From positions 99,140 to 163,139 of the forward strand of contig CAZZLD010000002.1 of assembly GCA_964655075.1 (NCBI GenBank): a stretch of DNA of 64,000 nucleotides, given 5' to 3'. The DNA is from an uncultured Candidatus Bathyarchaeia archaeon (GTDB lineage: Archaea; Thermoproteota; Bathyarchaeia; Bathyarchaeales; Bathyarchaeaceae). A model generated the notes under the pieces. The model was given only the letters and a program-made list of their open reading frames with translations, had not been told where the DNA came from and ran no database searches. Shown piece after piece: positions 7,732-63,979 of this stretch. Position numbers and translations under genes: made by a program. The number at the start of each line of letters is the position of its first letter. Position 1 is the first letter of the stretch.

Positions 7732-7817
7732 ACCTTCAAGCCCATTTTATGGTAAAAACCCTATTTGAATCCTATACAGAAGCCAAATAAAACTATAGAG
7801 CCTAGTTCCGCCGTCAG

Positions 7818-11118: not shown

Positions 11119-11268
11119 AGCAAAATTCCCCGCAGGCGTTAAGGCGAAACTTTTTATGTTACATAAGCCTCACGTTTCAAAAACTGCAGAATTGCCAAGG
11201 ATACGACGGCGAGAACTTTGATCGAAACGTTCGCTTTAATAGCGTTTTACCCAAAGGGAGGTTAATGA

Positions 11269-12195: not shown

Positions 12196-12262
12196 AAGCC
12201 GTTTTTAGGGCATTACATAAGATTTATACTAAATTAGTTTAATTAGAACACTGAAAGGGCTC

Positions 12263-13243: not shown

Positions 13244-13308
13244 GCTTTTTCGTAAATGCATATAAGTCTGAGGGTTACATGTTCTGTTGAAAACCAGAGA
13301 GGGTTCAT

Positions 13309-13758: not shown

Positions 13759-13875
13759 CCTCATTTTTTGTTTCTGAAACAAAGTTACTGAAAGCTTTTA
13801 AGGAATCGACAAGACAACAATAATGGTACGTATCCTCGTTGTACGTACTTATCTGGAGAAAAGAGAGATCTCTCT

Positions 13876-27215: not shown

Positions 27216-27519
27216 TCGCTGCCTCCGTGAGCTTAAGGATCTCTGAATCTCCCTGTTCTTTTACTGTTAAGGCTGAAACCGCAAATGGCTTTCCGCACGC
27301 CATACCTAAATCTATGCCTGTTCCCTTATAAACAATGATGGGAATTTTAGAAAGCTTACAATAATACTCAACGTCCTCTCGTGCAGTTCCTGGGCAGTTG
27401 GCTGCAACAATTATAAGCTTGGCTTTTCCGGTCTTAGCTGTTTTCACTGTGCTGTTGATCCCGAACAGGACTTTGCCGGTTTTCACGGTGGTCGCAATAG
27501 CCTTCTTTATATCCGTCAT
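27208..27519 (-). CDS. rpl30e: 50S ribosomal protein L30e (eL30)
   Basis: 103 aa. TGKVLFG.N.T.K....GKAKLIIVA.NCP pattern. Overlaps the rpoA stop and the nusA start, as in the conserved operon. Confidence 0.85.
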   Translation of the reverse strand: MTDIKKAIATTVKTGKVLFGINSTVKTAKTGKAKLIIVAANCPGTAREDVEYYCKLSKIPIIVYKGTGIDLGMACGKPFAVSALTVKEQGDSEILKLTEAANV

Positions 27520-30500
27520 TTCTTTTCCTCTTGGCGTGCAGTCGACATGTAAAGGTCAACTAAACCCGTTCCTATAGGTATGGACTGCCCCACTATTACG
27601 TTTTCGGTTACTCCCTGCAGCGGGTCACTTTCCCCTTTGATTGCCGCATCAACTATGTTCGCAACAGTGATCTCAAAGGCAGCCCTCGCGAGAACGCTGG
27701 CTTTCTCTCCGCTTATGCCATGTCTACCTATCTGCCGCACATCGCTGTTCGACGTCATAATATCTGCCACCAGCATGACGTGCCTTATGTCAACATCTAA
27801 CCCCTGCTCCTCCAACACTCCGATGGCTTCCTTAATTATCGCGTTTCTCGCTGCCTCAACTCCAAGGGTGCCAGCTATCTCGTGCACGTGATTGGTGGTT
27901 GTCCTTGTGGGGTCCACTCCAGGTATTTCAATTGCCTCAGGCATGTTTGAACCATCGGTTCGTATAACCCATTCTCCCTTTTCCTCAGTTACGAGTACTC
28001 TTCGAATGTCCTGCAGTCCTTTAATATGGTGTTCGGTAACCTTTTCAAGCAGCTTCGTGAGGTCCGACAGCTTTTTGGGCTTAAGGAAAATCTGGTCCCC
28101 CTTAGTTCTCAGCGTGCAATTAGGTAAACTCAGTTTCTCCTTCAGTTCTTCCATGCTGATGCCGCGATCCTCTATCATGGTTGGATCCAGCTGAACGACG
28201 ACTTCTCCCTTCTCAGGATCTATGTAAAGAGCCTTCGCGATATGTTTCGTTGCCGTATATATTATTTCGCGGGCTACTTTGGTGGCGGTCTCTTTGGTTT
28301 TTTGGTGTTCCTTGTCGAGGTAGATTGTCATTATAGGCGTGGAAGGTTTTCTTCGCGCGTCTACGATTTCGATGAGGCGCGGCAATCCGAGAGTAACGTT
28401 CTGCTCTCTTACTCCAGCATAGTGGAACGTCCTAAGCGTCATCTGAGTGCCTGGTTCACCTATGGATTGAGCGGCTATAACGCCAACAGCTTCGCCTGGT
28501 TCAACTAGGGCGCGCTTATAGTTTTCCACGGTTAAGGAAACCGCTTCATCTACGCCCTTTTGGGACAGCTTGGCTTTCGCCAACTCGTGGTTCAATTCTT
28601 TGACAAGAAGCGGCGTAAGTTGTGCTTCAGCCTCTTCGAGTTTCTTCTTTATGTACTGTTTAGGTGCAGGTTTTTCTTTCTCTATTGTGATTTTGATTTG
28701 TTCAACCAACCGCCTGACGTTGACGGCTTTTCCATGATCGCTTTTCGCAGGGTCAACTCCATCTTCACCGTATTTGAACTGAATTATGTCGCCAATTGAA
28801 TTTCGAACAGTTCTGTCGTATTCAATGCGTAGATGTTCTAGAGCGTTTATGAGGCGTCTCTGCATGTAGCCGCTCTGTTGCGTCCGAACCGCGGTGTCCA
28901 CGAGACCTTCCCGTCCGCCCATGGCGTGGAAGAAGAATTCAACGGGGTCCAAGCCGTCTCGATACGAAGAATACACGAACCCCCTGGCCTTAGGCGTCGA
29001 GTCCTTCTTCTTGAAGTGCGGTAATGCGCGGTCAACGTATCCACGCATGATCCGTTTCCCTCGCACAGACTGCTGCCCGACACACGCGGTCATTTGGCCG
29101 ATGTTGAGACTGGACCCTCTTGCGCCGCTGCGTGTCATGATCATGCCAGAGTTGTTTGCGCTAAACCCTTTGTCCGCAGTCTCTCCAGCCTTGTCCCTTG
29201 CCTCAGCCAGTTCATTCATAACGTAAATTTCAAACGACTCCGTGAGCGTTTGCCCGGGAAGTCTTTGAAGGGTTCCCCCGTGGTACTCCTTTATCAATTC
29301 GTTTATTCGGTCTTCAGCTTTCTTAATTACCCTATCGATTTTGTTTTTGGCAGTGGCGGACAACTCAAGTTCGTCGAATGAGTAGGTGAATCCACGCATG
29401 GTCATGAAGAGCTTAAGAAGCCGGCATATGCGGTTAAGGAACTGCCTTCCTGCTTGAGAGCCGTAATCCTTTATGATTCGGTGAAGAAGGCTCTCTGACT
29501 GTTCAGCTCCTATGGCGCTCCTGTCGATTACTCCGCTTTTTAAAACTCCGTTTTTGATAACCACGTAAGCGTCATACTCGCAGTCTTCATAGGTGCAAAC
29601 AGCGCAGCCGCGGCAAGTTATTGCCTTCAAAGTGTAGTTTAGGCCTTTAGGTATGAAGAGGCTGAATATCTGTTTTCCTGTCCACAGCGGCTCAGGTTTT
29701 TCGACTTCAGGTTCAGGAAGTGGGTCTTCGTAGCCTGCGGTTGATAAAAGCTTACAGACCTCTTCTTTTTTTAGATATGTGTTCTTTTGAGTGAACAGGT
29801 AAGCGGCGGTTATGAAGTCTCTGATTGCTCCTATGATGGGCCCACCGAACCGCGGTGAAAGAATCTGGTCTTGAACTTGCATGAGGAGGCGTGCTTCAGT
29901 TTTTGCTTCCTCGCTTTGTGGTACATGGAGGTTCATTTCGTCCCCGTCGAAGTCAGCGTTGTACGGTGGGCAAACGCAGAGGTGAAGACGAAATGTTCTG
30001 TCAGGTAAAACTCGGACGTAATGCGCCATGATCGACATTCGGTGAAGCGAAGGTTGCCTGTTAAAAATTGCTATGTCACCGTCTTTTAGGTGGCGTTCCA
30101 CGATGAAGCCTGGCTCTAAAGCCTCAGCGACCTTCTCTCGCTCAACAACGAATTCTAGTCGAACACGTTTTCCGTCAGGTCTTACAATGTAGAGCGCACC
30201 GGGATAGTTGTCAGGACCATTAATCACCAGCTTCCGCGCTTCTTCAACGTTCCAGGTTGTGATCTTCTCGGGAACCGAAAGTCTCATAGCAATGTCCATG
30301 GGAACGCCGACTTCGCTTATGTCAATGTCCGGATCGGGAGAGATGACAGTTCGCGCTGAAAAGTCAACTCTCTTCCCAGATAGGTTACTTCTGAATCTTC
30401 CTTCCTTGCCTTTAAGGCGCTGCGCCAAGGTTTTCAGCGCTCTGCCTGAGCGGTGTCTCGCTGGTGGGATACCTGAGGCTTCATTGTTAAAGTACGTTGT

Positions 30501-31334
30501 CACGTGATATTGTAGAAGTTCAGATAGGTCTTGGATGATGAGGGTGGGTGCGCCTGCTTCCATGTTTTCTTTCAGTCGTTGATTTATGCGGATGATGTCA
30601 ACAAGTTTGTGGGTTAGGTCGTCCTCAGACCGTATTCCAGACTCCAACGTTATTGAGGGTCTTACGTAAAGCGGCGGAACTGGGAGAACCTGCAGAATCA
30701 TCCATTCTGGGCGGGCGCTTTTCGGGTTCAAACCTAAAATTTCAAGGTCTTCGTCGGGTATGCGTTCAAGCCGTTCTCTAATCATGCTCGGCGTCAACCG
30801 CTGTGCTCCTTCTTCCAGAACTTCGTGGAAAGCCGTGGGCTTTGAGAACTCTATTTTGTACTGTAGCGCCCCGCAGTGTGGACATTCCTTAGCTTTTTTG
30901 GCTTCCAGCAGCACTTTTTTGTAAAGTCGGTCAGGCACCACGCCCATTAAATTGTGGACACGGATGATTCGGGCTTTGATTTTCTCAATTACGTTTGTTG
31001 GCAACAGCACGCGTCCGCAGTTTCTGCAAACAGATCGGATGAGGTTGTAAATTATTTTGGTGTATTCAACATGAATAACTGGAACTGCCAACTCGATGTG
31101 ACCGAAGTGCCCTGGACATCTGGCGGCGGTGTTGCCGCAGGTTTTGCATCGTTGCCTCGGCTCAAGGGTTCCTAATCTTCCGTCCATAAGCCCTGACATG
31201 ATCGGAGCGCCGTCTTCATCATATGTGTCCGCGGTTTGTATTTCTGCTACTGAGAACCGGCGGACCTCTTGAGGCGACAGCACTCCAAATTTGATTTCGT
31301 CAACGATTTTATGTACAGCTTCTTCAATCGCCAT
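27516..31334 (-). CDS. rpoA: DNA-directed RNA polymerase subunit A (Rpo1), unsplit A'+A'' fusion
   Basis: Single 1272-aa ORF. It contains A' motifs (zinc site CKTCGNTAARCPGHFGHIEL, catalytic NADFDGDEMNLH) and A'' motifs (SIGEPGTQMTLRTFHYAG trigger loop) in one frame with no internal stop. Confidence 0.95.
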   Translation of the reverse strand: MAIEEAVHKIVDEIKFGVLSPQEVRRFSVAEIQTADTYDEDGAPIMSGLMDGRLGTLEPRQRCKTCGNTAARCPGHFGHIELAVPVIHVEYTKIIYNLIRSVCRNCGRVLLPTNVIEKIKARIIRVHNLMGVVPDRLYKKVLLEAKKAKECPHCGALQYKIEFSKPTAFHEVLEEGAQRLTPSMIRERLERIPDEDLEILGLNPKSARPEWMILQVLPVPPLYVRPSITLESGIRSEDDLTHKLVDIIRINQRLKENMEAGAPTLIIQDLSELLQYHVTTYFNNEASGIPPARHRSGRALKTLAQRLKGKEGRFRSNLSGKRVDFSARTVISPDPDIDISEVGVPMDIAMRLSVPEKITTWNVEEARKLVINGPDNYPGALYIVRPDGKRVRLEFVVEREKVAEALEPGFIVERHLKDGDIAIFNRQPSLHRMSIMAHYVRVLPDRTFRLHLCVCPPYNADFDGDEMNLHVPQSEEAKTEARLLMQVQDQILSPRFGGPIIGAIRDFITAAYLFTQKNTYLKKEEVCKLLSTAGYEDPLPEPEVEKPEPLWTGKQIFSLFIPKGLNYTLKAITCRGCAVCTYEDCEYDAYVVIKNGVLKSGVIDRSAIGAEQSESLLHRIIKDYGSQAGRQFLNRICRLLKLFMTMRGFTYSFDELELSATAKNKIDRVIKKAEDRINELIKEYHGGTLQRLPGQTLTESFEIYVMNELAEARDKAGETADKGFSANNSGMIMTRSGARGSSLNIGQMTACVGQQSVRGKRIMRGYVDRALPHFKKKDSTPKARGFVYSSYRDGLDPVEFFFHAMGGREGLVDTAVRTQQSGYMQRRLINALEHLRIEYDRTVRNSIGDIIQFKYGEDGVDPAKSDHGKAVNVRRLVEQIKITIEKEKPAPKQYIKKKLEEAEAQLTPLLVKELNHELAKAKLSQKGVDEAVSLTVENYKRALVEPGEAVGVIAAQSIGEPGTQMTLRTFHYAGVREQNVTLGLPRLIEIVDARRKPSTPIMTIYLDKEHQKTKETATKVAREIIYTATKHIAKALYIDPEKGEVVVQLDPTMIEDRGISMEELKEKLSLPNCTLRTKGDQIFLKPKKLSDLTKLLEKVTEHHIKGLQDIRRVLVTEEKGEWVIRTDGSNMPEAIEIPGVDPTRTTTNHVHEIAGTLGVEAARNAIIKEAIGVLEEQGLDVDIRHVMLVADIMTSNSDVRQIGRHGISGEKASVLARAAFEITVANIVDAAIKGESDPLQGVTENVIVGQSIPIGTGLVDLYMSTARQEEKK

Positions 31335-31335
31335 T

Positions 31336-34300
31336 TTATGCTCGCTCCTTCAGTTTGAGGCGTGGCGTCACGCACAGGCTCGTAAGTTCCTGTAGGAGAA
31401 GCTTAAAGGCGTAGGAAACGATAACTGGGGAAATTTGGGCTTTTTCCTCGCAGATTCGGCACACGTAGCTGCGTTGTCTAATGTCGTAGTAGGCAATGTA
31501 ACCGCATCGTTCACAAACATAAAGCAAATATCTGTCCGATTCCTCGAGCAATCGATCCCGCAGCAACATGGCGGCTCCATGCCCAAGCAAACAGTCTCTC
31601 TCCATTTCGCCGAACCGCAATCCGCCTCCTCTAGCCCGCCCCTCTGTAGGCTGCCTCGTGAGCATTTGAACTTGACCTCGCGCCCGGGCGTGAATTTTAT
31701 CTCGAACCATGTGGTGAAGCTTTTGATAGTATACGATGCCCATGAAAACGTCCGCCACGAACTTCTCGCCTGTTATGCCGTTATAAAGAACCTCTCGACC
31801 GGTGTGACTGAACCCTAACTCAACGAGCATCCGCTTCAGACTTTCCGGCTTTTCATTTATGAAAGGTGTTCCGTCAACGGGTTTGCCGCTTGCCGCTGAA
31901 ACTTTTCCAGCCATGGATTCGAGGAACTGTCCAATGGTCATTCTCGACGGAATGGCGTGAGGGTTTATGATAACGTCTGGAACTATGCCGTTTGCCGAGA
32001 AAGGTATGTCCTCTTGAGGTACGATCATTCCTATAACGCCTTTCTGTCCATGGCGGGATGCGAATTTGTCACCTAGTTCGGGAATGCGCTGATCTCGAAC
32101 TCTGACTTTCACGAGTTTGCTTCCGTCGCGTGTTTCCGTAATGAAGACAGCGTCAACCGTGCCTGTTTCGGCAGGTCTCATATCCACAGAAGTGTCTCTC
32201 ATGGTGGGTCCTTTAACCTCAAACTCCTTGTATTCTTCGAGGAATCGGGGTGGGCTTGTCCTTCCGATGAGAACATCTCCTCCAGCCACGTCGGATTCTA
32301 GGCTGATGATTCCGTCTGGTTCAAGTAGGCGGTAGTATTGTTCTCCGCGGTATCCTCGGATGCCGGGTTCAGGTTTGGTGAATCGGTCTCTTAATCCACC
32401 CAGGTACTGCCGACATTCAGCGTCGTAAATTCGATAGAACGTTGAGCGCGCTAAGCCTCGTTCTATGGACGCTTTGTTGAAGATTATAGCGTCTTCCATG
32501 TTGTAACCTTCAAACGACAGCAGAGCGACGATGCAATTCTGTCCTGAAGGGCGAAGATCGTATCCAATTACGTCCATGGGTTTCGTTTTAATTATGGGCG
32601 TCTGCGGGTAGTGCAGAACATGGGATCGGGAGTCAACGCGTAGAAGGAAGTTCGTCGTGTTGATTCCGAGGGCTTGTTTTGCCATGGCTGCTTCGTAGGA
32701 GTTGCGGGGAGACTGGTTGTGTTCCGCGTACGGTATGATGGAAGCGCATATGCCAAGAATGGTATAGGGCGCTATTTCTATGTGCGTGTTTTCAGTCGTA
32801 ATTTTATCAAAATTTAGGGCTACAAGCACGTTTTCCTCTTCTTCTGCATCGAGGTACTCGATTATTCCCCGATTGACAAGTTCCTCCCACTTCCACTCGC
32901 CTGAACAGATTCTTTCAATGTGTTCTGGCTGTAGCTTGGAGACGCCGTCTTCAACAACAATTAGCGAACGCCGCGTACGTCCTGCATCGCAATTAACGTA
33001 AATTTCCTTGCGTTTCCCCTCTGAGAAGTAGGCAACATTTACCTCAGTTGAAATCTCGCCGATTCTACGTCTCTTCCGCAGCTCAGCAGCTAACTCTTTG
33101 GGTGTTGCGCAGTACCCAATGAGGCATCCATCTAGGAAAACCTTGGCGCCGGATTCACGTATTGACGAGGTTATCTCTTGGATGGGAATTACATCCATCT
33201 GATAGAGGGTTTGTTTCACTGTTTCAGGGTTGACTCCAACGGATATGGAGGCTGATAAGGCGAGGTTTTTAACCAGACCACAGTTTGATCCTTCAGGGGT
33301 TTCGTTTGGGCACAGTCTTCCCCAATGGGTTGGATGTAGGTCTCGAGCTTCAAAGTTGGGTTGGCTGCGGCTGAGCGGCGATTGTAGCCTTCTAAGGTGG
33401 CTGAGGGTGGAAACGCGGTTTGTTCTGTCGAGAAGTTGAGTAACGCCAACTCGTCCTCTTCCCCAATTCCCTGTTGCGAGGGCGTGTTTAACGCGATCAG
33501 CAACTATTCCGGGACGAACTGCAGCTGAAATCGCGACTCTGTGCCGTTTAGTGCCCATTCGCTCAAGCTGATATTTAATGTCGCGGCAGAGATTTCTGAA
33601 AGCTATTCTGAAAAGGTCGGCGAGTAGGGGACCAGCAAGTTTTAAGCGTTTATTCTTAAAGTGGTCCTTGTCGTCTGGGTTTCGCTTTCCAAGCTTTAAT
33701 TCAATAATGCGACACGCCATCTCACCGAGGAAGAAGGCTTTTTCTCGACGTTGCTCTTTTGTGCGACCAATGTGGGGCATAAAGTTTCGGTCGATGATGC
33801 TTTCAGCTCTTTTTCGGCGGTATTCTTCAACCTGTCCGTGGGCCACGCGATTTCCAATAAACATTATAGCGTCTTCAATAGTGTTGATGCCTTCTGCTTT
33901 TTCGAAGGAAGCCTCAAGCTGGTTCTGTGTGTCCTTTTCTGGGGAGACGGCTTCCGCGATTTCTCTGTCGGACTCCAAACCGAGCGCGCGCATTATAATT
34001 ACGAAAGGTATTTCGGTTGGGACGCTTGGCATTGAAGCGTAAATGGTTCCGTCTGACTTTAGTTTCAGCTGGATTCTCGCTCTGAATCCGACGGTTGTTG
34101 AAAACACTTTAGCTTCGTAAACCGGATTTACTCCACGTGTGTCAACGTCCACGAGGATGTGGTTTGGAGCCAAGTCTTCCATGGCTACGATGACGCGTTC
34201 AGAGCCGTTTATGATGAAGTATCCACTTGGATCGTCCGGGTCTTCCCCGTGTGCAATCAGCTCTTCAGGAGTCATCTGAGAGAGGAAGCAGAGCTTAGAT

Positions 34301-34692
34301 TTCAACATAACCGGCAGGTCGCCTATCATAATCAGCTCAGGCTCCTGCTCTCTACCGTCGATCATCGGGGTCATCTCGAGGGCTATGGGCGCAGCGTAGC
34401 TTAGGCTGCGGAACCTTGCCTCTAAGGGATAGATTTCATGTTTTGTGCCGTCGACCTCTGTGATGTAGGGTCCGCTGACTTTTGACACGGGGTCTAGAAT
34501 CCAAATGCGTCCGAGCTTTATTTTGTACGGTCTTTCTGGAACCTCGATTTCTATTTCCCCTGTTTCATCAATTACCTCTTGGAGACCGTGGTCGATGAAC
34601 TCGTTGTAGGAATCTAGGTGTTGCCTAACCAGTCCCTTCTCCTCGAAGAAGGATTTTTGAAGGGCCAAAAGGTCGTTGTTTGAGATTTCCAA
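31336..34692 (-). CDS. rpoB: DNA-directed RNA polymerase subunit B (Rpo2), unsplit
   Basis: 1118 aa. GDKFASRHGQKGV, LRFGEMERDCL and a C-terminal Zn ribbon CERCG...CRIC. TTG start (complement of 34690-34692) with GGGGGT upstream. Confidence 0.95.
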   Translation of the reverse strand: MEISNNDLLALQKSFFEEKGLVRQHLDSYNEFIDHGLQEVIDETGEIEIEVPERPYKIKLGRIWILDPVSKVSGPYITEVDGTKHEIYPLEARFRSLSYAAPIALEMTPMIDGREQEPELIMIGDLPVMLKSKLCFLSQMTPEELIAHGEDPDDPSGYFIINGSERVIVAMEDLAPNHILVDVDTRGVNPVYEAKVFSTTVGFRARIQLKLKSDGTIYASMPSVPTEIPFVIIMRALGLESDREIAEAVSPEKDTQNQLEASFEKAEGINTIEDAIMFIGNRVAHGQVEEYRRKRAESIIDRNFMPHIGRTKEQRREKAFFLGEMACRIIELKLGKRNPDDKDHFKNKRLKLAGPLLADLFRIAFRNLCRDIKYQLERMGTKRHRVAISAAVRPGIVADRVKHALATGNWGRGRVGVTQLLDRTNRVSTLSHLRRLQSPLSRSQPNFEARDLHPTHWGRLCPNETPEGSNCGLVKNLALSASISVGVNPETVKQTLYQMDVIPIQEITSSIRESGAKVFLDGCLIGYCATPKELAAELRKRRRIGEISTEVNVAYFSEGKRKEIYVNCDAGRTRRSLIVVEDGVSKLQPEHIERICSGEWKWEELVNRGIIEYLDAEEEENVLVALNFDKITTENTHIEIAPYTILGICASIIPYAEHNQSPRNSYEAAMAKQALGINTTNFLLRVDSRSHVLHYPQTPIIKTKPMDVIGYDLRPSGQNCIVALLSFEGYNMEDAIIFNKASIERGLARSTFYRIYDAECRQYLGGLRDRFTKPEPGIRGYRGEQYYRLLEPDGIISLESDVAGGDVLIGRTSPPRFLEEYKEFEVKGPTMRDTSVDMRPAETGTVDAVFITETRDGSKLVKVRVRDQRIPELGDKFASRHGQKGVIGMIVPQEDIPFSANGIVPDVIINPHAIPSRMTIGQFLESMAGKVSAASGKPVDGTPFINEKPESLKRMLVELGFSHTGREVLYNGITGEKFVADVFMGIVYYQKLHHMVRDKIHARARGQVQMLTRQPTEGRARGGGLRFGEMERDCLLGHGAAMLLRDRLLEESDRYLLYVCERCGYIAYYDIRQRSYVCRICEEKAQISPVIVSYAFKLLLQELTSLCVTPRLKLKERA

Positions 34693-43148: not shown

Positions 43149-44327
43149 CTAGACTATCAAAGAAAATAATGTTCCAATCAGGTAGGTTATCGTCGCAGCG
43201 GAGGCTCCTATAATCATCATCTCCAGTCCGCTCCGAACCCAATTTTTTCTCGAAAAAATTGTTTTCATGGCTCCTACTCCGAACAGGGCGGCTACAGTGG
43301 CAATTATGGAGGCTATTAGGGCGTCTGTGCAGCTTAAAGCTCCAAAGGCGAAGGGCAGTATCGGCACCAGAGCCGCAAGGCCAAAGAATATTCCACACAA
43401 AACACCAGCCTTAACTGGGTTCCCAAGCTCTTCAGGCGCGAGACCCACCTCTTCAAGGGTGCCTGCTTGTATAGGCAGCTCTTTTTCCTCAGCGATCCTG
43501 TTGACGATGGCTTCGGCTTCTTCTCTCTTAAAGCCTTCTGCCTGATAGAACTTTATCAGCTCCTCCCTTTCCTCTTCAGGGGTCCTCCCCTTCTTGACTT
43601 TTTCTCTCTGGCTTTCTCTCTCCAGCACCTCCAGTTCAGACTTGGCTGATTGGTAGGAGCCAGCGGCCATGGATATGGTTCCGGCAAAGAGTTCTGCTAT
43701 CCCTGATAATAGAACGATGTAGGGATCTGTGATGGCTCCCACTACTCCAGCCACGAAGGCAAGGGTTGAGACCAGTCCGTCGTTGGCCCCAAAGATCATG
43801 TCCCTGACTCCTCCGCCGCCTCGTATCTCCCATGCTTCCATTCCAAGCACTTCGCTCTTCATTCTTTCCAGATGTATCCTTTCGTCAGAGGCAAATCTGC
43901 TCCAGGTCTCGGAAGTGGCTGTGTCCTTGATCTTTTCGGCTTGAATGGCTAAATCTTGGATGCCCTCTTCCTCGCCCAGCACGGCCCACTCGAAGAATCC
44001 CTTTGTGCCCAGGATGCGCATCATGAATCCCGTCTTCTGGTTTCTGAGGAAGGCTCTCGTTGCCCCTTCGCGTTCGCCCCCTAACTCCTCGATTTTGTTA
44101 GACCAGAATTCGGCGTGCTTCGTCTCGTCAGAGCTGATCCGTATCAAAAGTTGCTTAATCCTTTCGTCCTTAGCCCTTTTAACGAGTATCTTGTACCCTT
44201 TGGTTTGCATGATCTTATGGGCATAGATTTTGTTGGCTGCGTTGAGAATCCCTTTCCTTTCCTCGTCTTTAAGTTCAGTCATAAGCATCCGCTCCACATA
44301 AATTGTCTGAAAGATATTTAAAAACAC
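43149..44327 (-). CDS. Erythrin-VIT1 (MbfA-like) iron exporter: ferritin-like N-domain fused to a VIT1/CCC1 membrane domain
   Basis: ExxH di-iron motifs (DETKHAEFW, SDERIHLERM). VIT1 signature DMIFGANDGLVSTLAFVAGV plus C-terminal TM helices. The start may be an internal Met. Confidence 0.8.
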   Translation of the reverse strand: MFLNIFQTIYVERMLMTELKDEERKGILNAANKIYAHKIMQTKGYKILVKRAKDERIKQLLIRISSDETKHAEFWSNKIEELGGEREGATRAFLRNQKTGFMMRILGTKGFFEWAVLGEEEGIQDLAIQAEKIKDTATSETWSRFASDERIHLERMKSEVLGMEAWEIRGGGGVRDMIFGANDGLVSTLAFVAGVVGAITDPYIVLLSGIAELFAGTISMAAGSYQSAKSELEVLERESQREKVKKGRTPEEEREELIKFYQAEGFKREEAEAIVNRIAEEKELPIQAGTLEEVGLAPEELGNPVKAGVLCGIFFGLAALVPILPFAFGALSCTDALIASIIATVAALFGVGAMKTIFSRKNWVRSGLEMMIIGASAATITYLIGTLFSLIV

Positions 44328-44351
44328 TAACTGTGAATATAATAAAACTGT

Positions 44352-45110
44352 TTGAAGGTGTTTGACTTGGCAGCTGAATATGTTTCGATGGGGATTCCCG
44401 GCGTTGACGAGGTCCTTGCGGGAAAGGGGATTCCGAGGGGTAGCACGATTTTGGTGAGTGGTGGACCAGGCAGCGGAAAAACGACTTTCGCTATTCAGTT
44501 TCTTTACACGGGAGCGACTCAGCGTGGTGAATCGGGCGTTTATGTTACTCTTGATGAAGACCCGGGCGACATAAAGGCTAACATGGCTGAGTTTGGGTGG
44601 GACCTAAAGAAACTGGAGGACGAGAAGAAGCTTGTGTTTATCAACGTTTCGCCGGTTCGTGTTGCGCCTTCTGAGAAGGCCGGCCTCATCCAGATTGGGA
44701 TGAAGGAGTTCAGGCTGGTAAAGTTGCTGGAAGCCATCAGGGAGGGTATCGATGAAGTCGATGCGAAAAGGGTGATCGTTGATCCCCTGACGATCTTCAC
44801 TCTTCAATATCCGGACGAGATCGAGCGCATATATGCCATGAGGGACCTGATGAGGGACTTGAGAAAGAGGGACTCTACGAACTTGTTGATTTCCGAGTTG
44901 AGGGGCACGGGGCTGGAGAGGGAGCATCAGTTTGAGGAGTATTTAGCTCAGGGGGTTATTCTGCTTCGCACGTTTCTGAAGGACAGCAAGTTGGTTCGGG
45001 TGTTTCAGGTGGAGAAGATGCGTGGGTTAGCCATAGACAACCAGCCGCGACCATACACTATAACGGGTAAAGGCATAGAAGTGTTTCCGAAGGCCATGGT
45101 TTACAAGTGA
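44352..45110 (+). CDS. Single-domain KaiC/RadA-like (RecA superfamily) ATPase
   Basis: 252 aa. GIPGVDEVLAGKGIPRGSTILVSGGPGSGKTTFAIQFL (Walker A), VIVDPLT (Walker B), VEKMRG..., FTI-type ending ITGKGIEVF. Confidence 0.8.
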   Translation: MKVFDLAAEYVSMGIPGVDEVLAGKGIPRGSTILVSGGPGSGKTTFAIQFLYTGATQRGESGVYVTLDEDPGDIKANMAEFGWDLKKLEDEKKLVFINVSPVRVAPSEKAGLIQIGMKEFRLVKLLEAIREGIDEVDAKRVIVDPLTIFTLQYPDEIERIYAMRDLMRDLRKRDSTNLLISELRGTGLEREHQFEEYLAQGVILLRTFLKDSKLVRVFQVEKMRGLAIDNQPRPYTITGKGIEVFPKAMVYK

Positions 45111-45190
45111 GCCTTCAACTCTAGACTCGTCAGAGGACTACCGATAAACTAAAAAAGCTACGTAAGTTAGTCTTAACCGGTCGATTGTTG

Positions 45191-45760
45191 CTAGAGGGAA
45201 CCTTTGTAATATTGTGTGGTTGGGCATCCAACGCATTTTTTTGACTGGTATTTCTGGCAGGATCCGCAGTCGACATTGCAGGGAGTGATCGCCCTTTCCC
45301 TATGTGCGAGATACTCTCTTACAGGTAAAAAGGGGGAATAATGGATGTTGCCTACGGGATAGAACTCAGATCTGCGAATTCCCTCGTTGCTCCTCAGAGA
45401 GCACTTCTCTACAGATATACTTTCCAAGGTGCTTTGGTCCTCGGCTACTATAAGGGCAATGAGATTATATCCGCTCAGAGTGGTGAAGATGTGAACTACT
45501 CTCGGACAGTTTCTGAAGCGTTCGAGAAGATTATTCATAGCTTCGGCACTTTCAATTTCAATCATAACGATCGCCCCTGTAAGGTTTAGTGATTCCATGT
45601 TTAGTAGAGCTGAAACCTTGAGGATCCTTCGTTCTTGCAGGCCTTCAAGTCTATTCTTGATTCCCATGCTGGTGTAACCAGTGAGTTCTCCTAACTCTTT
45701 TAAGGTTGTTCGACCGTCCAGTTGGAGCTTTGATATGAGCTTCTGATCAACTTCATCCAA
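45191..45760 (-). CDS. Lrp/AsnC-family transcriptional regulator with C-terminal Cys-rich extension
   Basis: N-terminal HTH_AsnC (DEVDQKLISKLQLDGRTTLKELGELTGYTSMGIKNRL). RAM-like middle region. Tail CNVDCGSCQKYQSKKCVGCP (C-x3-C-x2-C-x8-C-x2-C). Confidence 0.75.
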   Translation of the reverse strand: MDEVDQKLISKLQLDGRTTLKELGELTGYTSMGIKNRLEGLQERRILKVSALLNMESLNLTGAIVMIEIESAEAMNNLLERFRNCPRVVHIFTTLSGYNLIALIVAEDQSTLESISVEKCSLRSNEGIRRSEFYPVGNIHYSPFLPVREYLAHRERAITPCNVDCGSCQKYQSKKCVGCPTTQYYKGSL

Positions 45761-45810
45761 ACAGTTAACCTCATTTAGTTTATTTTCTAAACATAATTAA
45801 CTACATACCT

Positions 45811-45818
45811 ATATAAAC
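45811..45818 (+). promoter_or_regulatory. Candidate TATA box (atataaac) for the KaiC-V4R gene
   Basis: Lies 29-36 nt upstream of ATG 45847 (41-48 nt upstream of the second ATG at 45859, which aligns with the paralog N-terminus MVSL[SA]QLQEVP). Consistent with a short or absent leader. Confidence 0.3.
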
Positions 45819-45846
45819 TAATAAACCAGTACTTCCTTACTTATTA

Positions 45847-47643
45847 ATGGAGTTATTGATGGTCTCTCTAAGCCAACTTCAAGAAGTACCGTTAAGGAAC
45901 ATGATCTTGCTGGTTGGTCCCCCTGGGACGGGGAAATCGGCGTTCTGCGAACAGGTCATCCTCCACAGCTTAGCTATAGACAGGTCTATCATCTATGTGA
46001 CGACCGAATACGGTCCTTCCGAGGCTGAGAGGACTTTAAGGGAGCGAGGGTTGCTGGAAGTTGAACCGGGCCTGCTGAACTTCATTGATGCATACAACGA
46101 AACGGTGGGGCTTCCAGTCCCGGATCGCCCTGACACTGCTCGCGCAGACTGCGACGACCTTTCCAGCATAGGCGTTGCGATCTCCAAGACGAGTGATCGA
46201 ATAGGGAGAAAAGGTGTTCTGTTAGTCTTCGATTCCCTAACTTCTCCCTACCTGTTCAGCGGCTCCGAGGTCCTGAAGTTCATGAAGAGAACCCTCTCGA
46301 GGTTTGCTGCTGAGGGAAACAGCGTTTTAGCATGTTTTGATAAGGGTAGCGGCAAGGAAGAAGACCTCGTAGCCATGATGAGCCTCTCAAACGGCGTAAT
46401 AAAGATGGAGTTAATGGAAGGAAAAACAGTGCTGAACGTTGTGAAGCACCCCAAGTTGAAGCCAGCAAGAATTGAAGCGCCTATTGAACCCAAACCCATA
46501 GGATTGGAAGAGCGTGTCTTCAATCCCGATGTGCTGGCACGGTACCTTCGGGGAGATAAAGCAGTGATGAGAAGGGAGGTCGGAGACTTCGTGAACTTGT
46601 TCTGGCCCAACTTCGCCCACTGGAGCGGGATGCTCTGGGATCCCAAACGGTTCCCCATGATGGTGTACGAGATGAATAAAGAGGACGGCCCATCCATGAT
46701 CAAGCTAATGAGGGAGAATGAAGCGGTCAAGCGCGCCATGTTTCCCTGGCACATGAGACTTCTCCTCAGGTTCATGCCGAAGAACTTCAGCAAGCCCAAA
46801 GACATGAAGAAACTGTTGAAAGGGATGGAGAAATCGCTTGGCGGCCCGAAACAGGAGCGCAGCGGCATCGTGGAATACCTTGAAGACCGCTCGAAGCCTG
46901 ATGAACACTACGGTAGGATATACGAAAGCTCTGAATGCTGGGGATTCGAAAACGTCGGCGCCACGATGGGATTCTATCTCCCGCCTGGCGTGGCAGGCAT
47001 GATGCAAGCATTTGAGAGTTGGCAGGGGCTTGAGAGGGACTGGAACGCTATTGAGACAAAGTGCATCGGTCTCGGGGACCCATACTGCGAATGCAAATTC
47101 GTGCCTGGAGAAATTGATGAGCTGAAGGATTCTCTAGAGAAAGACGTCTCGGTCATCGAAAGGATACATGAACGGTTGATGCATCATCTCATGGAGTTTC
47201 TGCTGAACGGAAAGCCTCTCTTGGAGAGACCTACGCTGGGAAGCCAAGTGAACATCCACAGGGTCTGTCACGCGATGGTTTTTCCCGCACTGGCAGGCGA
47301 GAGGTATCGAATGGTGTTGGGGATGGGGGGAGCCAGGTCAGGGAAGCAGGTCGGGGAACGCCTGTTGGAAGCGGGTTTAAAGGAAGATGAGGCTGTGAAG
47401 CGTGTTCTAGATTTCCTAAACCAATGCAAGGTTGGAAAGGCCACAGTGGATGAGACCATAAGAATAGTGGAGAACTGCGAGAGCTCGCAGACGAAGCTGT
47501 TCACGACGAAGGAGAAGGTCCCGTCATGCTATTTCACCACGGGCTTCCTCAACGGTCTATTCTCAGCGGTCAAAAATCAGCACGTTAAAGAAACGAAGTG
47601 TATCGCAATGGGTAATCCGTACTGTGAGTGGGAATTCAGATGA
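45847..47643 (+). CDS. KaiC/RecA-like ATPase fused to two V4R-type domains (paralog 1)
   Basis: 598 aa. Walker A LLVGPPGTGKSAF, Walker B LLVFDSLTSPY. Two V4R-like terminal signatures ETKCIGLGDPYCECKF and PSCYFTTGFLNGLFSAVKNQHVKETKCIAMGNPYCEWEFR. Confidence 0.75.
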   Translation: MELLMVSLSQLQEVPLRNMILLVGPPGTGKSAFCEQVILHSLAIDRSIIYVTTEYGPSEAERTLRERGLLEVEPGLLNFIDAYNETVGLPVPDRPDTARADCDDLSSIGVAISKTSDRIGRKGVLLVFDSLTSPYLFSGSEVLKFMKRTLSRFAAEGNSVLACFDKGSGKEEDLVAMMSLSNGVIKMELMEGKTVLNVVKHPKLKPARIEAPIEPKPIGLEERVFNPDVLARYLRGDKAVMRREVGDFVNLFWPNFAHWSGMLWDPKRFPMMVYEMNKEDGPSMIKLMRENEAVKRAMFPWHMRLLLRFMPKNFSKPKDMKKLLKGMEKSLGGPKQERSGIVEYLEDRSKPDEHYGRIYESSECWGFENVGATMGFYLPPGVAGMMQAFESWQGLERDWNAIETKCIGLGDPYCECKFVPGEIDELKDSLEKDVSVIERIHERLMHHLMEFLLNGKPLLERPTLGSQVNIHRVCHAMVFPALAGERYRMVLGMGGARSGKQVGERLLEAGLKEDEAVKRVLDFLNQCKVGKATVDETIRIVENCESSQTKLFTTKEKVPSCYFTTGFLNGLFSAVKNQHVKETKCIAMGNPYCEWEFR

Positions 47644-47681
47644 ATGTAATGAAAACAATTCAAAATAGGAGTTGAGGAAAG

Positions 47682-48326
47682 TTGGAGATGGATGAGATAA
47701 TTGTTGCCGGTGAACCTTGCCTCGTTATTCGCAACCCCCTGATCCCGAGAACATTACTATGCAACTCGCTGCTCCAGCCTCTACTGTCCCGGCTAAAGAG
47801 TCCCGAGGAGTTCGTGGCATTTGTGTCAGAACCGTGCGTTGCTCCTCAAGGTTTAGATGTGGTGCTAGTCACGGCTTTTTGGCCCAGATGCGTCTTCAAC
47901 CAGGTTTCAGAGGAAGCTGTCAGTAGACCCGTGCAGACCATCAAACCCCAACATCTCATGCTGGTCGAAAGGGAACTCTACATGAAGCTGACCAAGAAAA
48001 GCTGTCTCTTCGGAGACTTCCTAGATTCCCTGCTTCTACACAACGAAGATAAAAGAAAGGTTAGCGAGCTTCTAAGCAAGGTCCGCAGCTGGATAAGGAA
48101 CAACAAGTCGTACGGCCTGTTCTTCCTGACAGAGGTGAGAGGGATGGAGGACTTTATCGATCAAGCCGCCAGCATCTTCGAGATCGTTGTCAAAGCAGAA
48201 GTCGAAACAGAGCAGGATGAACCATTACTACGCTTCACCACAATGAAGCATCCCAGCATTGCTGAGATAGATAAGAAAATTGAGGTGGCATTTGAGAAAG
48301 GCCAGCCAAAACGAAGAAGAGGCTAG
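47682..48326 (+). CDS. Hypothetical protein, possibly a degenerate P-loop-less RecA/KaiC-fold paralog
   Basis: 214 aa with no Walker A. The C-terminal half (SYGLFFLTEVRGMEDFIDQAASIFEIVVKAEVETEQDEPLLRFTTMKHPS) resembles the KaiC-like core strands (..LISE.RG....GVI.L......R.L.V.K.RG). Weak, by eye only. Confidence 0.45.
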   Translation: MEMDEIIVAGEPCLVIRNPLIPRTLLCNSLLQPLLSRLKSPEEFVAFVSEPCVAPQGLDVVLVTAFWPRCVFNQVSEEAVSRPVQTIKPQHLMLVERELYMKLTKKSCLFGDFLDSLLLHNEDKRKVSELLSKVRSWIRNNKSYGLFFLTEVRGMEDFIDQAASIFEIVVKAEVETEQDEPLLRFTTMKHPSIAEIDKKIEVAFEKGQPKRRRG

Positions 48327-48330
48327 TCAC

Positions 48331-50088
48331 ATGGTTTCATTAGCTCAACTGCAGGAAGTGCCGCCAAAAAGCATGATCTTGCTGGTTGGTTCTCCAGGCT
48401 CGGGAAAGTCGACATTCTGTCAGCAAATGGTTCTCAGCAATATTGAGATGAGACCAGTCGTCTATGTGACAACCGAATTAGCTCCATCTAAAGTTAAAGA
48501 ATCACTTAGACAAAAGGGACTAGGTGAGACATCACCTCACCCAATTGGCTTCGTTGATGCATTCCACGAAACCGTTGGCCTAGCAACCGTGTCTAAACCA
48601 GACACAGTGACCGCTTCTTCTGAGGATTTGACAAGCCTAGGCATCGCCCTTTCCAAGCAACAGGAAAGGATGGGAGAAACATTTTTGTTGGTCTTCGACT
48701 CCCTGACCTCGCCCTACTTAATTGGTGGTTCAGAAATTTTGAGGTTCATGAGGACTAGCCTATTAAAGATGGCAGCTGAGGGAAACGCCGTCTTAGCCTG
48801 TGTGGATGAGGGCTGCGGCAAACCCGAGGACCTTGTGGCCATGATGAGCCTCTCAAACGGCGTAATAAAGATGGAGACGGAGGATGGAAGGAGGGTGCTG
48901 AACGTCGTGAAACATCCCATAGTAGAGCCTACAAGAGTTGAGGTTCCTGGGACCAAGATTTCGGAGAAGCTATGGGATATGCGAATGTGGGAAGAGGAGA
49001 TTATGAAGTTTCCTCTCCGTGCGATGAAGGGCGAAGCTCTAGGAACAGTTCGAAGAGAGCTTGGGAATTACGTGAACTTGTTCTGGCCTAACTTCGCCCA
49101 CTGGAGTGAGATATTATGGGACCCCAAACGGTTCCCAGAGATGGCGTATGAAATGAGCAAGAAGCACGGCGAAGGCATGAAAGAGATGATGATGTTTGCT
49201 CCCCGGCATCAGAGACTTCTCTTCCAATTACTCATGCCGAAGAGCTTCAGCAGGGTGAAAGACATGAAAAAATTGGGGGTTTCCAAGATGTTAAAAGGGA
49301 TGGGTATGGGCATCTTGGAATACGCTGAAGACGCCTCTAAGACTGACGAGCACTACTTTAGGGTATACGAGAGCGCCGAATGCTGTGGATTCGAGAACAT
49401 AGGCGCCACTATGGCTTATCTTCTCCCTCCAACCACTGCAGGCATGTTCAAAGGACTTGAGAGCTGGAAAGGGCTTGAGAGGGACTGGAATGCCGTTGAG
49501 ACTAAATGCATAGGATTAGGGGACCCCTACTGTGAATGGAAGGTGGTGCCCGGGGAAATCCCCGAGCTGCAGGATTCCTTGGAGAAAGACAGTCAGGTTA
49601 TTGATAGGATGCATGACCAGCTGATGGGGCGCCTCATGGGATTTCTACTCGAGGGCAAACCCCTTGTAGAGAGGCCTAGGTCGGGAAGCGATGTAATGTT
49701 GAGCGCTGTTCTTCACGTCATGGTTCAGCCCGCTCTGGCCGGTGAGAGGTACCGTATAGTCATGAGGATGGCTGGAGCAAAGGCGGGAAAGGAGGTGGGA
49801 GAGCATCTGATGGAAGCGGGGATAAGGGAGGATGAGGCTGTGAACCGCGTTCTAAACTTCTTAGAATACTGCAAAGTAGGAAAGATCACGATGAATGAAA
49901 CTATGAGAATGAAGGAGAGCTGTGAGAGCGTGTTTTACAGGTTTATGACGAAGAAGCGGGAGGAGCCTACCTGCTATTTCACCACCGGATTCGTTAACGG
50001 ATTCTTTTCAACTGTCAAAAACCAGCATGTCAGAGAAACTAAGTGCATAGCGATGGGCGACCCTTACTGTGAATGGGAGTTCAGATAG
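48331..50088 (+). CDS. KaiC/RecA-like ATPase fused to two V4R-type domains (paralog 2)
   Basis: Start moved from 48280 to in-frame ATG 48331 (MVSLAQLQEVP). Walker A LLVGSPGSGKSTF, Walker B LLVFDSLTSPY. ETKCIGLGDPYCEWKV and PTCYFTTGFVNGFFSTVKNQHVRETKCIAMGDPYCEWEFR. Collinear with 45847-47643. Confidence 0.75.
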   Translation: MVSLAQLQEVPPKSMILLVGSPGSGKSTFCQQMVLSNIEMRPVVYVTTELAPSKVKESLRQKGLGETSPHPIGFVDAFHETVGLATVSKPDTVTASSEDLTSLGIALSKQQERMGETFLLVFDSLTSPYLIGGSEILRFMRTSLLKMAAEGNAVLACVDEGCGKPEDLVAMMSLSNGVIKMETEDGRRVLNVVKHPIVEPTRVEVPGTKISEKLWDMRMWEEEIMKFPLRAMKGEALGTVRRELGNYVNLFWPNFAHWSEILWDPKRFPEMAYEMSKKHGEGMKEMMMFAPRHQRLLFQLLMPKSFSRVKDMKKLGVSKMLKGMGMGILEYAEDASKTDEHYFRVYESAECCGFENIGATMAYLLPPTTAGMFKGLESWKGLERDWNAVETKCIGLGDPYCEWKVVPGEIPELQDSLEKDSQVIDRMHDQLMGRLMGFLLEGKPLVERPRSGSDVMLSAVLHVMVQPALAGERYRIVMRMAGAKAGKEVGEHLMEAGIREDEAVNRVLNFLEYCKVGKITMNETMRMKESCESVFYRFMTKKREEPTCYFTTGFVNGFFSTVKNQHVRETKCIAMGDPYCEWEFR

Positions 50089-63268: not shown

Positions 63269-63979
63269 TCATATGACATCCTGTATAGTGAGGTTAAGTA
63301 CGATTTCTGCTATGTCGCTGGCATATTCAGCCGTTCTTCTTATGCTTTCGATGATAAGCCTCAAGCTGGAGGTCTCTTCAGCGCCAGTTTGTTTTGAGAC
63401 AGAACGTATTATTTCTCTTTCCATCAGGGTCACCTTTTTTGCCTTTTTGACTACCTCATCCGCCAGTTGGAAGTCTTGTTTAAACAAAGCCTCTATTGCA
63501 TCTTCAAAAACGGAAATTGCTGATGAACTCATATTTTGAATTCCCTGAAAAACTTCTTGGGCTATTGGTTTTTTCAATGACGAAACATTCTCTGCGATTC
63601 TAACAGCGTGGTCAGCTGTTCTTTCAACGGTTTTTGTTATAAGCCTATATCCCAGACAATCTCTCGCTGTGGCTAGACCTATCTCCTTTATGATTTTCTC
63701 GTTTGCTACTGCTGCCTTCAGTTGGCGGATGACGTATAGGCTGAAACGATCAACCTCATCGTCCATGGTTGCAACGTCATGGGCTAACGCCAAATCCAAT
63801 TCTCTCAGAGCCGTTATAGCGTCCTGATGCATGGAACTAGTTATGATGTACATTCTTCTCAGGGCACTTTGAACTGAGAGTTCAGGATAGCTGAGCAGTA
63901 CTTTCATAACTAGTTCCTTAGAAGAATCTGCTATGATCTCCGTTCCCACCAGCTTTCTGCGAGTGAAATCTTTTATCAC
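63269..63979 (-). CDS. phoU: PhoU-family phosphate uptake regulator-like protein (N-terminus may lie beyond the window)
   Basis: Two PhoU-type helical repeats (MDDEVDRFSLYVIRQL.. and ..IESIRRTAEYASDIAEIVLN). The frame stays open upstream of the GTG at 63979 to position 64000, so an N-terminal (for example AbrB-type) domain may be cut off. Confidence 0.7.
   Translation of the reverse strand: MIKDFTRRKLVGTEIIADSSKELVMKVLLSYPELSVQSALRRMYIITSSMHQDAITALRELDLALAHDVATMDDEVDRFSLYVIRQLKAAVANEKIIKEIGLATARDCLGYRLITKTVERTADHAVRIAENVSSLKKPIAQEVFQGIQNMSSSAISVFEDAIEALFKQDFQLADEVVKKAKKVTLMEREIIRSVSKQTGAEETSSLRLIIESIRRTAEYASDIAEIVLNLTIQDVI

Follow-up and report, generated by a model that had tools for sequence, protein, structure and literature searches.

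The stretch analysed here (the window: 64,000 nucleotides of DNA from an uncultured Candidatus Bathyarchaeia archaeon) holds, at 44352–50088, a cluster of genes for KaiC-type ATPases, comprising a stand-alone single-domain protein, KaiC1, and two longer paralogs, KV_A and KV_B, in which a KaiC-like ATPase domain is followed by two V4R modules. Comparison with other genomes indicates a conserved module that spreads horizontally and of which this locus is a reduced version; a ferritin-like/VIT1 gene, KaiC1 and one to six tandem KV genes recur together in more than 45 related loci, spread over both Archaea and Bacteria. The strongest conserved partner of the KaiC-type genes is a divergent gene for a ferritin-like/VIT1 exporter at 43149–44327, just beyond the range covered by a first-pass annotation of this DNA. 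We tentatively read the locus as a V4R-gated KaiC-family switch tied to iron/redox homeostasis, a reading that we place slightly short of an even chance. An open reading frame (ORF) check of the window bore out all coordinates of that annotation; of the four KaiC paralogs that it counted, KaiC1, KV_A and KV_B stood and a 214-residue protein (p214) did not, being negative in all homology tests, so that three KaiC-family genes can be demonstrated here from sequence.

KaiC-type ATPases and their V4R modules

KaiC1 (44352–45110, plus strand) matched the Pfam family KaiC (PF06745) at 1.6e-61 (208.1 bits, cut-off 26.6) and carries the motifs GGPGSGKT (Walker A), LDE and VIVDPLT, in line with its earlier description as a stand-alone KaiC-like ATPase. 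By sequence it resembles the CI domain of clock KaiC: a sequence search of the PDB gave KaiC entry 8zn5 (1.1e-55; CI, 138 bits; CII, 51 bits), as well as PH0186 (1.3e-37) and PH0284 (4.7e-36).

KV_A (45847–47643, plus strand) probably starts at the ATG at 45859, because an identical database protein (P0001) has 594 residues and homologues start there. For KV_B (48331–50088, plus strand), the mechanical ORF opens with a TTG at 48280, overlapping the end of the p214 gene, and alignment of homologues favours the ATG at 48331. As this ATG lies 4 bp past the p214 stop codon, the tightly packed KV_A, p214 and KV_B genes would form one operon. The two KV proteins are 59% identical over their whole length, and in an hmmscan comparison both exceed the Pfam gathering scores for KaiC (KV_A, 32.6 bits, 6.7e-8; KV_B, 40.7 bits, 2.2e-10; cut-off 26.6) and, as whole proteins, for V4R (PF02830; KV_A, 43.1 bits, 4.6e-11; KV_B, 52.4 bits, 5.8e-14; cut-off 31). 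Their P-loops (GPPGTGKS and GSPGSGKS) and the motif LLVFDSLTS are present, so that the first-pass description of two KaiC-V4R paralogs of ~590 residues is confirmed. In KV_A, a KaiC-like domain (residues ~15–205) is followed by a variable linker, V4R module 1 (residues ~246–420, window 46582–47106) and V4R module 2 (residues 421–598, window 47107–47640), all encoded on the plus strand. An AlphaFold2 model of KV_A (mean pLDDT 63.5) retrieved the hexameric KaiC-like ATPase PH0284 as its top Foldseek match (1.3e-9), then KaiC CI, and the search with the whole model returned KaiC-type matches alone; PH0284 was also found by a PDB profile search with KV (2.5e-11).

Conservation was assessed over 55 full-length KV paralogs from 30 loci, using KV_A residue numbering. 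The Walker A residues G24, P26, G27 and K30 are present in 100% of these proteins, E54, the catalytic glutamate by analogy to KaiC, in 96% and D129 in 98%. By sequence, no KV paralog looks degenerate and the ATPase looks active, which, with Walker A/B and catalytic residues kept in 96–100% of paralogs and p214 not demonstrably KaiC-like, goes against the idea that the locus combines active with degenerate subunits. Fourteen residues are kept in at least 53 of the 55 proteins, namely those of the ATPase motifs together with C364, E403, C406, C414, C561, E582, C585 and C593. Variation is concentrated in the linker (221–240) and in loops at 281–300 and 321–340, and, among the structured parts, the N-terminal half of V4R module 1 varies most. 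The V4R cores are about as conserved among paralogs as the ATPase domain, so a cue class shared by all KV proteins appears to fit better than wide ligand diversification.

The V4R motifs reported earlier, KCIGLGDPYCE[CW], KCIAMG[ND]PYCEW and CYFTTGF[LV]NG, all occur in KV_A and KV_B. When scanned alone, the C-terminal V4R copies scored 34.3 and 39.6 bits, above the Pfam cut-off of 31, and the first copies 15.9 and 20 bits. Profile–profile comparison of the two halves gave a probability of 97.4% (E 1.4e-11, 62 columns), indicating two homologous V4R modules of which the first is divergent; C364 of the first copy aligns with C544, not C561. The proposed tandem V4R arrangement therefore holds at Pfam level for the C-terminal copy; for the first copy, which falls below the cut-off, it is suggested by homology to the second.

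Within module 2, C561, E582, C585 and C593 are invariant in all 55 paralogs and follow the pattern C-x(20-23)-E-x2-C-x7-C; E403, C406 and C414 of module 1 are likewise invariant, and C364 is kept in 54. Eleven cysteine columns in total are retained in at least 87% of paralogs, five of them in module 2 (C527, C544, C561, C585 and C593). The C/E/C/C set of the KV_B C-terminal module aligns with residues 155/178/181/189 of MopR, which we take to be the zinc ligands of that protein, and with the PoxR residues that presumably serve likewise. This alignment, together with that to the redox cysteines of MsvR, identifies the KCIxxGxPYCE motif flagged by the first-pass annotation as a V4R metal site, putative in the KV proteins. 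Zinc is bound through cysteines in PoxR and in an Asgard TRAPPC3-like V4R protein (Thor-TRAPPC3), where the site shapes the ligand cavity and the fold is dimeric (PMC10933270). In MsvR, the same cysteine triad (spacing about 24–26 and 8) governs redox-dependent DNA binding, and in MaMsvR cysteine mutations alter that binding, C206A most clearly (PMC3729527). MsvR is also the best-scoring V4R-containing NCBIfam model for both KV_A (5.9e-10, residues 497–596) and KV_B (4.7e-16), although, with scores of 39.2 and 59.2 bits where the cut-off is 220, the V4R part alone aligning and no helix-turn-helix (HTH), neither is assigned to that family. MobR (E 0.078) and BchJ (E 0.14) matched more weakly, and the Pfam scan of the KV proteins found no XylR_N, Sigma54_activat or HTH_8, placing them outside the XylR/DmpR type.

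The ferritin-VIT1 exporter and the spread of the module

The partner gene at 43149–44327 (minus strand) encodes a predicted MbfA-like iron exporter in which an N-terminal ferritin-like/rubrerythrin domain is fused to a VIT1 membrane domain (Pfam VIT1, 4e-62, 210 bits; Rubrerythrin, 25.7 bits, cut-off 22.8). Two ExxH motifs, DETKH and DERIH, are visible in the translation, and none of the two Ex6Y motifs of MbfA was clearly found in it by eye; at the domain level, the protein has the ferritin-like di-iron domain plus VIT1 that characterise MbfA/erythrin-VIT1 proteins. Such MbfA-type proteins export iron and protect against iron and peroxide stress (PMC7762939, PMC7714665). The true start is probably the ATG near 44289 (MLMTELK...), and the gene runs divergently from KaiC1 across a gap of ~24–60 bp, depending on that start. 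The AT-rich region between them (44290–44351) contains the TATA-like boxes ATATTTAAAAA and AATATAATAAAA and is probably a shared divergent promoter.

For relatives of the locus, we scanned one genome per species as well as annotated contigs and metagenome loci (labelled L001–L130), searching the window proteins against the related loci and taking identities and gaps from tblastn matches. The genome scan yielded 39 KV loci, all from metagenome-assembled genomes (MAGs). KaiC1 orthologues (68–83% identity) adjoin KV arrays in 14 genome loci, so the order of KaiC1 followed by KaiC-V4R genes is not confined to the source genome. Of the 39 genome loci, 12 have a VIT homologue next to KaiC1 or the KV array, as do L040–L047 and L049–L050. 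In archaea the VIT gene and KaiC1 diverge, 33–37 bp apart in L004 and L037 (Bathyarchaeia), whereas in Chloroflexota the VIT gene lies at the opposite end of the array in convergent orientation, which indicates that the linkage survives rearrangement. Further components are found in some lineages, namely p214 between KV genes in Bathyarchaeia and a membrane protein of ~410 residues in several groups.

Several loci carry variants of the arrangement. A divergent VIT1–KaiC1 pair without a KV gene after it lies in L045/L046 (about 8803–10756), near archaeal ribosomal proteins and with a KaiC1 80% identical to that of the window; the VIT–KaiC1 pair may be the ancestral core, with KV genes as add-ons. 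Upstream of such a pair, L047 (1–1698) has a 565-residue ORF that joins a membrane segment to a KaiC-like domain at the C-terminus, in which SPSCDER stands in place of the P-loop, and a DDE transposase follows its KaiC1 where KV genes would be expected. In the complex locus L048 (GCA_975901545.1, 2233–14867), VIT1 and single-domain KaiC genes occur twice each, beside one KaiC-V4R gene and the gene for a 1318-residue KaiC-domain protein, and the VIT–KaiC association may thus extend to other KaiC architectures. In L049/L050 (about 5312–15874), a minimal module of VIT, KaiC1, one KV and a 422-residue membrane protein sits among [NiFe]-hydrogenase maturation genes (HypC, CobW-family, HypA, HypD and HypF), another metal-centre context. 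Ferritin, ZIP, peroxiredoxin, Nitro_FeMo-Co, CbiA/Fer4 and DUF1847 genes flank the module in L040 and L042.

The KV family as a whole exceeds 2,282 clusters, drawn exclusively from MAGs or metagenomes, with members automatically annotated as 'predicted hydrocarbon binding protein/KaiC/GvpD/RAD55 family RecA-like ATPase'. By label, the genome loci are 14 from Bathyarchaeia, 21 from Chloroflexota (mostly Dehalococcoidia), one from Promethearchaeota and three from Clostridia or Pirellulales, the last on short or mid-sized contigs that may be mis-binned; the module itself was found in Bathyarchaeia, Hodarchaeales and Chloroflexota. Compared with long Chloroflexota contigs (L003, L005, L006, L014, L024 and L025), the window proteins are 72–75% (KaiC1), 71–74% (KV_A) and 52–58% (VIT) identical, and KV_A shares more with these bacterial proteins than with KV_B, its paralog in the window (59%). 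Inter-domain transfer of the module is implied by these identities, to the extent that taxonomic labels based on binning are correct; the neighbours in L041 are bacterial-type (bactofilin, LysM and TatA), and a histone gene lies near the module in L043 (Hodarchaeales). A neighbour-joining tree of KV proteins (no bootstrap) showed several orthologous groups, basal Chloroflexota copies and one mixed clade, groupings which suggest that the paralogs predate at least one inter-domain transfer. Flanking genes are otherwise unrelated: 211 Pfam families occur among 143 flanking ORFs, none in more than 4. As no family recurs in that scan, a conserved metabolic pathway partner was rejected.

Lrp, p214 and other genes near the module

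Between KaiC1 and KV_A lies a gene on the minus strand (45191–45760) for an Lrp/AsnC-type regulator, with HTH_AsnC above its cut-off (31.3 bits, 1.7e-7; cut-off 27) and AsnC_trans_reg just under it (23.4 bits, 5.7e-5; cut-off 25). The protein belongs to Lrp/AsnC, and its scores against all NCBIfam equivalog models, far below cut-off, mark it as a divergent member with an extra cysteine tail, just as the first-pass annotation had it. The tail, CNVDCGSCQKYQSKKCVGC, holds five cysteines in the pattern C-x3-C-x2-C-x8-C-x2-C and gave no Pfam match when scanned alone; its C-x2-C-x8-C-x2-C part could bind a cluster or zinc.

The same annotation had proposed that the ATPases are coupled to this regulator, which the comparison does not bear out. 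Full-length homologues, cysteine tail included, occur at 63–96% identity in 80 metagenome loci (L051–L130), and only in the three closest of these (at least 90% identity) does the gene adjoin KV, KaiC1 or VIT. In the other 77, no KV, KaiC1 or VIT was found within 4 kb, two contigs being too short to judge, and in the genome collection L001 alone shares the Lrp junction of the window. Thus, of the suggested co-occurrence, KaiC1 and KaiC-V4R do recur together, Lrp as a general module partner is rejected on the metagenome scan, and, on sequence comparison, the Lrp gene is a lineage-specific insertion between KaiC1 and KV_A. Elsewhere the regulator lies mostly beside iron–sulfur (Fe-S) and iron genes: among 68 loci, its neighbours are a NUBPL/Mrp-type iron-transfer NTPase in 56, Nitro_FeMo-Co in 46, a metallo-beta-lactamase-like protein also in 46, CbiA-Fer4 in 21, DUF1847 in 18, NifU_N in 12 and a DtxR/FeoA-type iron repressor in 9. 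Its origin therefore fits the iron/Fe-S theme, though it is not a defining partner, and this Cys-tailed Lrp family seems uncharacterised in its own right. In L051 (1166–1369), the closest metagenome relative of the window, a KV-like fragment of ~68 residues lies between Lrp and KaiC1, a remnant that points to recent rearrangement and marks the place of the Lrp insertion.

The divergent region between Lrp and KV_A (45761–45858; 86–98 bp) contains a TATA-like box, CTATATAAAC, spanned by a perfect 9-nucleotide inverted repeat, TTAGTTTAT (45775–45783) and ATAAACTAA (45813–45821), with 29 nucleotides between the arms. This repeat is a candidate operator/promoter, or could have arisen by chance in AT-rich DNA.

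The p214 ORF (47682–48326, plus strand), between KV_A and KV_B, is a real gene: in its codon differences to four orthologues, synonymous changes exceed non-synonymous ones by ~2:1. No other protein of the locus is as well conserved as its product (89% identity to L004, compared with 82% for KaiC1, 74% for KV_A and 73% for VIT). The gene lies between KV genes in L001, L004, L009, L037, L040 and L042, and p214 possibly acts as an adaptor for KV proteins. Homologues number 313 clusters at E<=0.001, with 87–100% identity among the 120 matches listed, and an exhaustive phmmer/HMMER search of 1.84 billion representatives gave a single full-length 50%-identity cluster, making p214 an orphan family. 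The proposal that it is a KaiC core without a P-loop found no support. There was no Pfam or NCBIfam match at E<=1, BLASTP against KV_A and KaiC1 was not significant, hhalign against the KV N-domain gave a probability of about 1% (P 0.05), and the alignment score from a position-specific scoring matrix lay within that of shuffled sequences (z = 1.1; 38 of 300 shuffles reached it). The phmmer search added no support either, and the AlphaFold2 model (mean pLDDT 39.5) was too poor for a fold search; no sequence or fold relationship was detected. The collinear motifs FGDFLDSLL versus VFDSLTSPYL and MKHP versus VKHP, together with a beta-alpha-beta pattern in the poor model, are a lead, not a finding.

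In several related loci, though not in the 64-kb window, the KV array is followed by a membrane protein of ~410–422 residues, which in L004 sits inside the array (L040:19622–20854; L004:4887–6143; L041:13648–14697; L042:21426–21776, cut; L049:11602–12870). The L049 and L040 copies are 77% identical and that in L041 looks frameshifted. Several membrane helices seem to make up the N-terminal ~200 residues, and the cytosolic C-terminal half, which has no Pfam match, contains the P-loop-less motifs ILLLGPTAPTQ and LGDFLDNM, reminiscent of an inactivated KaiC and of FGDFLDSL in p214. A relationship of this domain to p214 through the common GDFLD motif was set aside as a hint only (BLASTP E 0.012; hhalign probability 4%).

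Elsewhere in the window, RNA polymerase subunit A is a single ORF of 1272 residues with Rpb1 domains 1–5 (27516–31334, minus strand), not split into A' and A'', and adjoins an unsplit subunit B of 1118 residues (31336–34692, minus strand); we take the unsplit subunit A to fit a Thaumarchaeota-like (Bathyarchaeia-type) lineage. At 63269–63979 (minus strand), a 236-residue ORF carries PhoU domains and, at its C-terminus, a match to the histone fold (Pfam Histone, 4.5e-6, 27.4 bits, cut-off 26.4), an unusual pairing.

Proposed working and relation to known systems

From these observations of domain architecture, catalytic and metal-site residues, gene linkage and spread, we infer a possible cue, oligomeric state, target and link to iron physiology as follows. 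The two V4R modules of each KV protein would form an intramolecular pseudo-dimer, as their likeness to dimeric V4R/TRAPPC3 proteins suggests, with the Cys/Glu metal site holding each module together. This pair would report a redox, metal or small-ligand cue, to which the attached KaiC-type ATPase, by itself or jointly with KaiC1, would respond with a change in assembly or nucleotide turnover, following the logic of XylR/DmpR. The state of the ATPase might then tune iron export and handling at the membrane. In the source genome and its closest relatives, a Cys-tailed Lrp from an Fe-S/iron island would have been inserted between KaiC1 and KV_A, and may add transcriptional control of the KV_A–p214–KV_B operon. 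The iron theme is suggested by the MbfA-type exporter, by the metal genes flanking the module in L040, L042 and L049, and by the Fe-S/iron island from which the Lrp derives.

A number of points weigh against this switch. Every KV relative comes from a MAG or metagenome, linkage to the VIT1 gene alone is no proof of regulation, and no recognisable output domain was found in the core module proteins. The ferritin, ZIP and Hyp neighbours are confined to a few related lineages, six loci (L002, L006 and L027–L030) have one or two KV genes and no KaiC1 or VIT within 3–8 kb (at least one, L002, is a satellite from the same MAG as the full locus L004), and L005 has a KaiC1-bearing array without VIT nearby. 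Since phenolics are the ligands of the V4R domains in XylR, DmpR and MopR, an organic compound with no relation to iron could be the cue. The moderate quality of the KV_A model (pLDDT 63.5) weakens the pseudo-dimer idea, and in solved V4R structures the cysteine site is structural zinc, not a sensor (PMC10933270).

The strongest competitor, which we nevertheless judge unlikely, is close to the first-pass interpretation: KV proteins would be ATPase switches gated by small hydrophobic ligands such as aromatics or hydrocarbons, forming hetero-oligomers with a degenerate p214 and signalling via Lrp, each array sensing different ligands. V4R forms the phenolic pocket of MopR, PoxR and DmpR, with which the KV C-terminal motif aligns, and Bathyarchaeia and Dehalococcoidia are known for aromatic and organohalide metabolism. 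Ligand diversification would account for up to six paralogs per array and for the variability of V4R module 1 in its N-terminal half, the Lrp/KV_A divergent region holds an inverted repeat, and V4R/TRAPPC3 folds have hydrophobic cavities (PMC10933270, PMC2253512). However, XylR_N is absent and the best V4R match is MsvR rather than the phenol sensors; the V4R cores are as conserved among paralogs as the ATPase; Lrp adjoins the module in so few loci, and p214 is not demonstrably KaiC-like. Moreover, the 143 flanking ORFs contain no conserved genes of aromatic or hydrocarbon catabolism, and the single conserved partner is an iron exporter.

In a less probable reading, KV proteins are not sensors but ATP-driven handlers of metal or Fe-S cofactors whose Cys-rich V4R modules trade iron or clusters with the ferritin-like domain of the exporter. 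The eleven conserved cysteines per KV, five of them in V4R module 2, would suit this role, as would the pairing with a ferritin-VIT1 protein, the Hyp, CobW-family, ferritin, ZIP, Nitro_FeMo-Co and CbiA/Fer4 neighbours of some lineages, and the recruitment of an Lrp from an Fe-S assembly island. Yet solved structures of V4R and TRAPPC3 proteins have structural zinc at the equivalent site, a chaperone would not usually come in arrays of as many as six paralogs, the metal genes in the flanks are specific to certain lineages, and we know of no metallochaperone with a KaiC or V4R fold.

More speculative still is a membrane-associated heteromeric machine of KaiC-type rings, in which a KaiC1 ring and rings of up to six KaiC-V4R paralogs, organised by p214 and anchored by the ~410-residue protein, would directly gate the ferritin-VIT1 exporter according to redox or metal state, the whole having moved as a unit among Bathyarchaeia, Asgard and Chloroflexota. 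If true, iron homeostasis would here be kept post-translationally, by a device of a new type.

Two further readings seem to us highly improbable. A timer or oscillator akin to the KaiABC clock of cyanobacteria would accord with the close match of KaiC1 to the clock CI domain (E 1e-55), but KaiC1, KV_A and KV_B each carry a single KaiC domain with no CI–CII duplication, scores against the NCBIfam models of circadian KaiC stay well short of the threshold (160, with 408 required), the annotated neighbours yielded no match to the KaiA or KaiB families, the hosts are anaerobes of dark sediments, and single-domain archaeal KaiC homologues are generally non-clock proteins. Mobile-element cargo, or an anti-phage defence island using KaiC-like NTPases, would be in keeping with variable flanks, inter-domain transfer, the transposase after KaiC1 in L047 and matches to PADLOC mad8 (4.4e-7, KaiC1), but the PADLOC scan gave weak matches restricted to the P-loop region, which led us to reject a defence system; in addition, there is no conserved integrase, nuclease or toxin gene, the regular partner is a housekeeping-type metal transporter, and the module genes are all strongly conserved in sequence.

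Of the elements of the locus, the V4R, MbfA and Lrp families are already known, as are KaiC–sensor fusions as an archaeal theme. Makarova, Galperin and Koonin reportedly proposed archaeal KaiC-like ATPases as signalling hubs in 2017, and to our knowledge very few of these ATPases have a known input or output. KaiC-like domains fused to sensor or output domains are a known theme in archaea (PMC5847659). In the searchable literature we found no paper on a KaiC-V4R protein, in accord with the earlier statement that none has been characterised, nor did we find the KaiC-2xV4R family, its tandem arrays, p214, the membrane partner, the ferritin-VIT1 pairing or the archaeal–bacterial spread, of which the 2017 KaiC survey may hold an earlier mention. 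The family offers a candidate sensor, in two V4R modules with a conserved metal site, together with a candidate target, the MbfA-like exporter. It is abundant in Bathyarchaeia and Dehalococcoidia, among the most numerous groups of anoxic sediments, and occurs in Asgard archaea too, and identities of 70–80% across the divide between archaea and bacteria would mean that a regulatory module of several genes has recently passed between the two domains. Should the iron/redox link of the proposed V4R-gated switch be true, it would represent a way for strict anaerobes to keep iron in balance independently of Fur- or DtxR-type repressors, and a first function for the V4R–ATPase pairing outside sigma-54 activators.

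Among known systems, KaiC1 is a typical member of the archaeal single-domain KaiC-like ATPases (PH0284, PH0186 and SSO2452; ArlH, GvpD and CirA-D). With these the module shares the RecA/KaiC fold, Walker A/B and the catalytic glutamate, PH0284 being the best match of the KV N-domain; it differs in the tandem V4R partner, the arrays of one to six paralogs, the tie to ferritin-VIT1 and the occurrence in Chloroflexota. In XylR/DmpR-type regulators, the ATPase is released once a ligand occupies the V4R domain, and such a V4R-gated ATPase is by analogy the nearest working model for KV. XylR, DmpR, MopR and PoxR likewise carry a V4R domain with a C..E..C..C site in the same chain as an oligomeric ATPase, whereas the KV ATPase is of RecA/KaiC rather than AAA+ type, is N-terminal and is joined to two V4R copies, and KV proteins have no XylR_N, sigma-54 interaction module or DNA-binding domain. 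MsvR aligns with KV over about 100 residues and has the same three-cysteine pattern, but KV carries an ATPase in place of a helix-turn-helix and is not a member of the MsvR family. TRAPPC3/Bet3 and the Asgard TRAPPC3-like proteins belong to the same fold superfamily, with Cys-bound zinc, a dimer and an internal cavity (PMC10933270, PMC2253512), but they stand alone and dimerise, whereas in KV two copies are fused behind an ATPase. Finally, the window exporter shares with MbfA the two-domain build of a ferritin-like/rubrerythrin N-domain with ExxH motifs and VIT1; MbfA, however, is controlled by Irr, has no KaiC partner and, in characterised form, is confined to alpha-proteobacteria according to a 2020 review, whereas the exporter described here occurs in archaea and Chloroflexota, always next to a KaiC gene.

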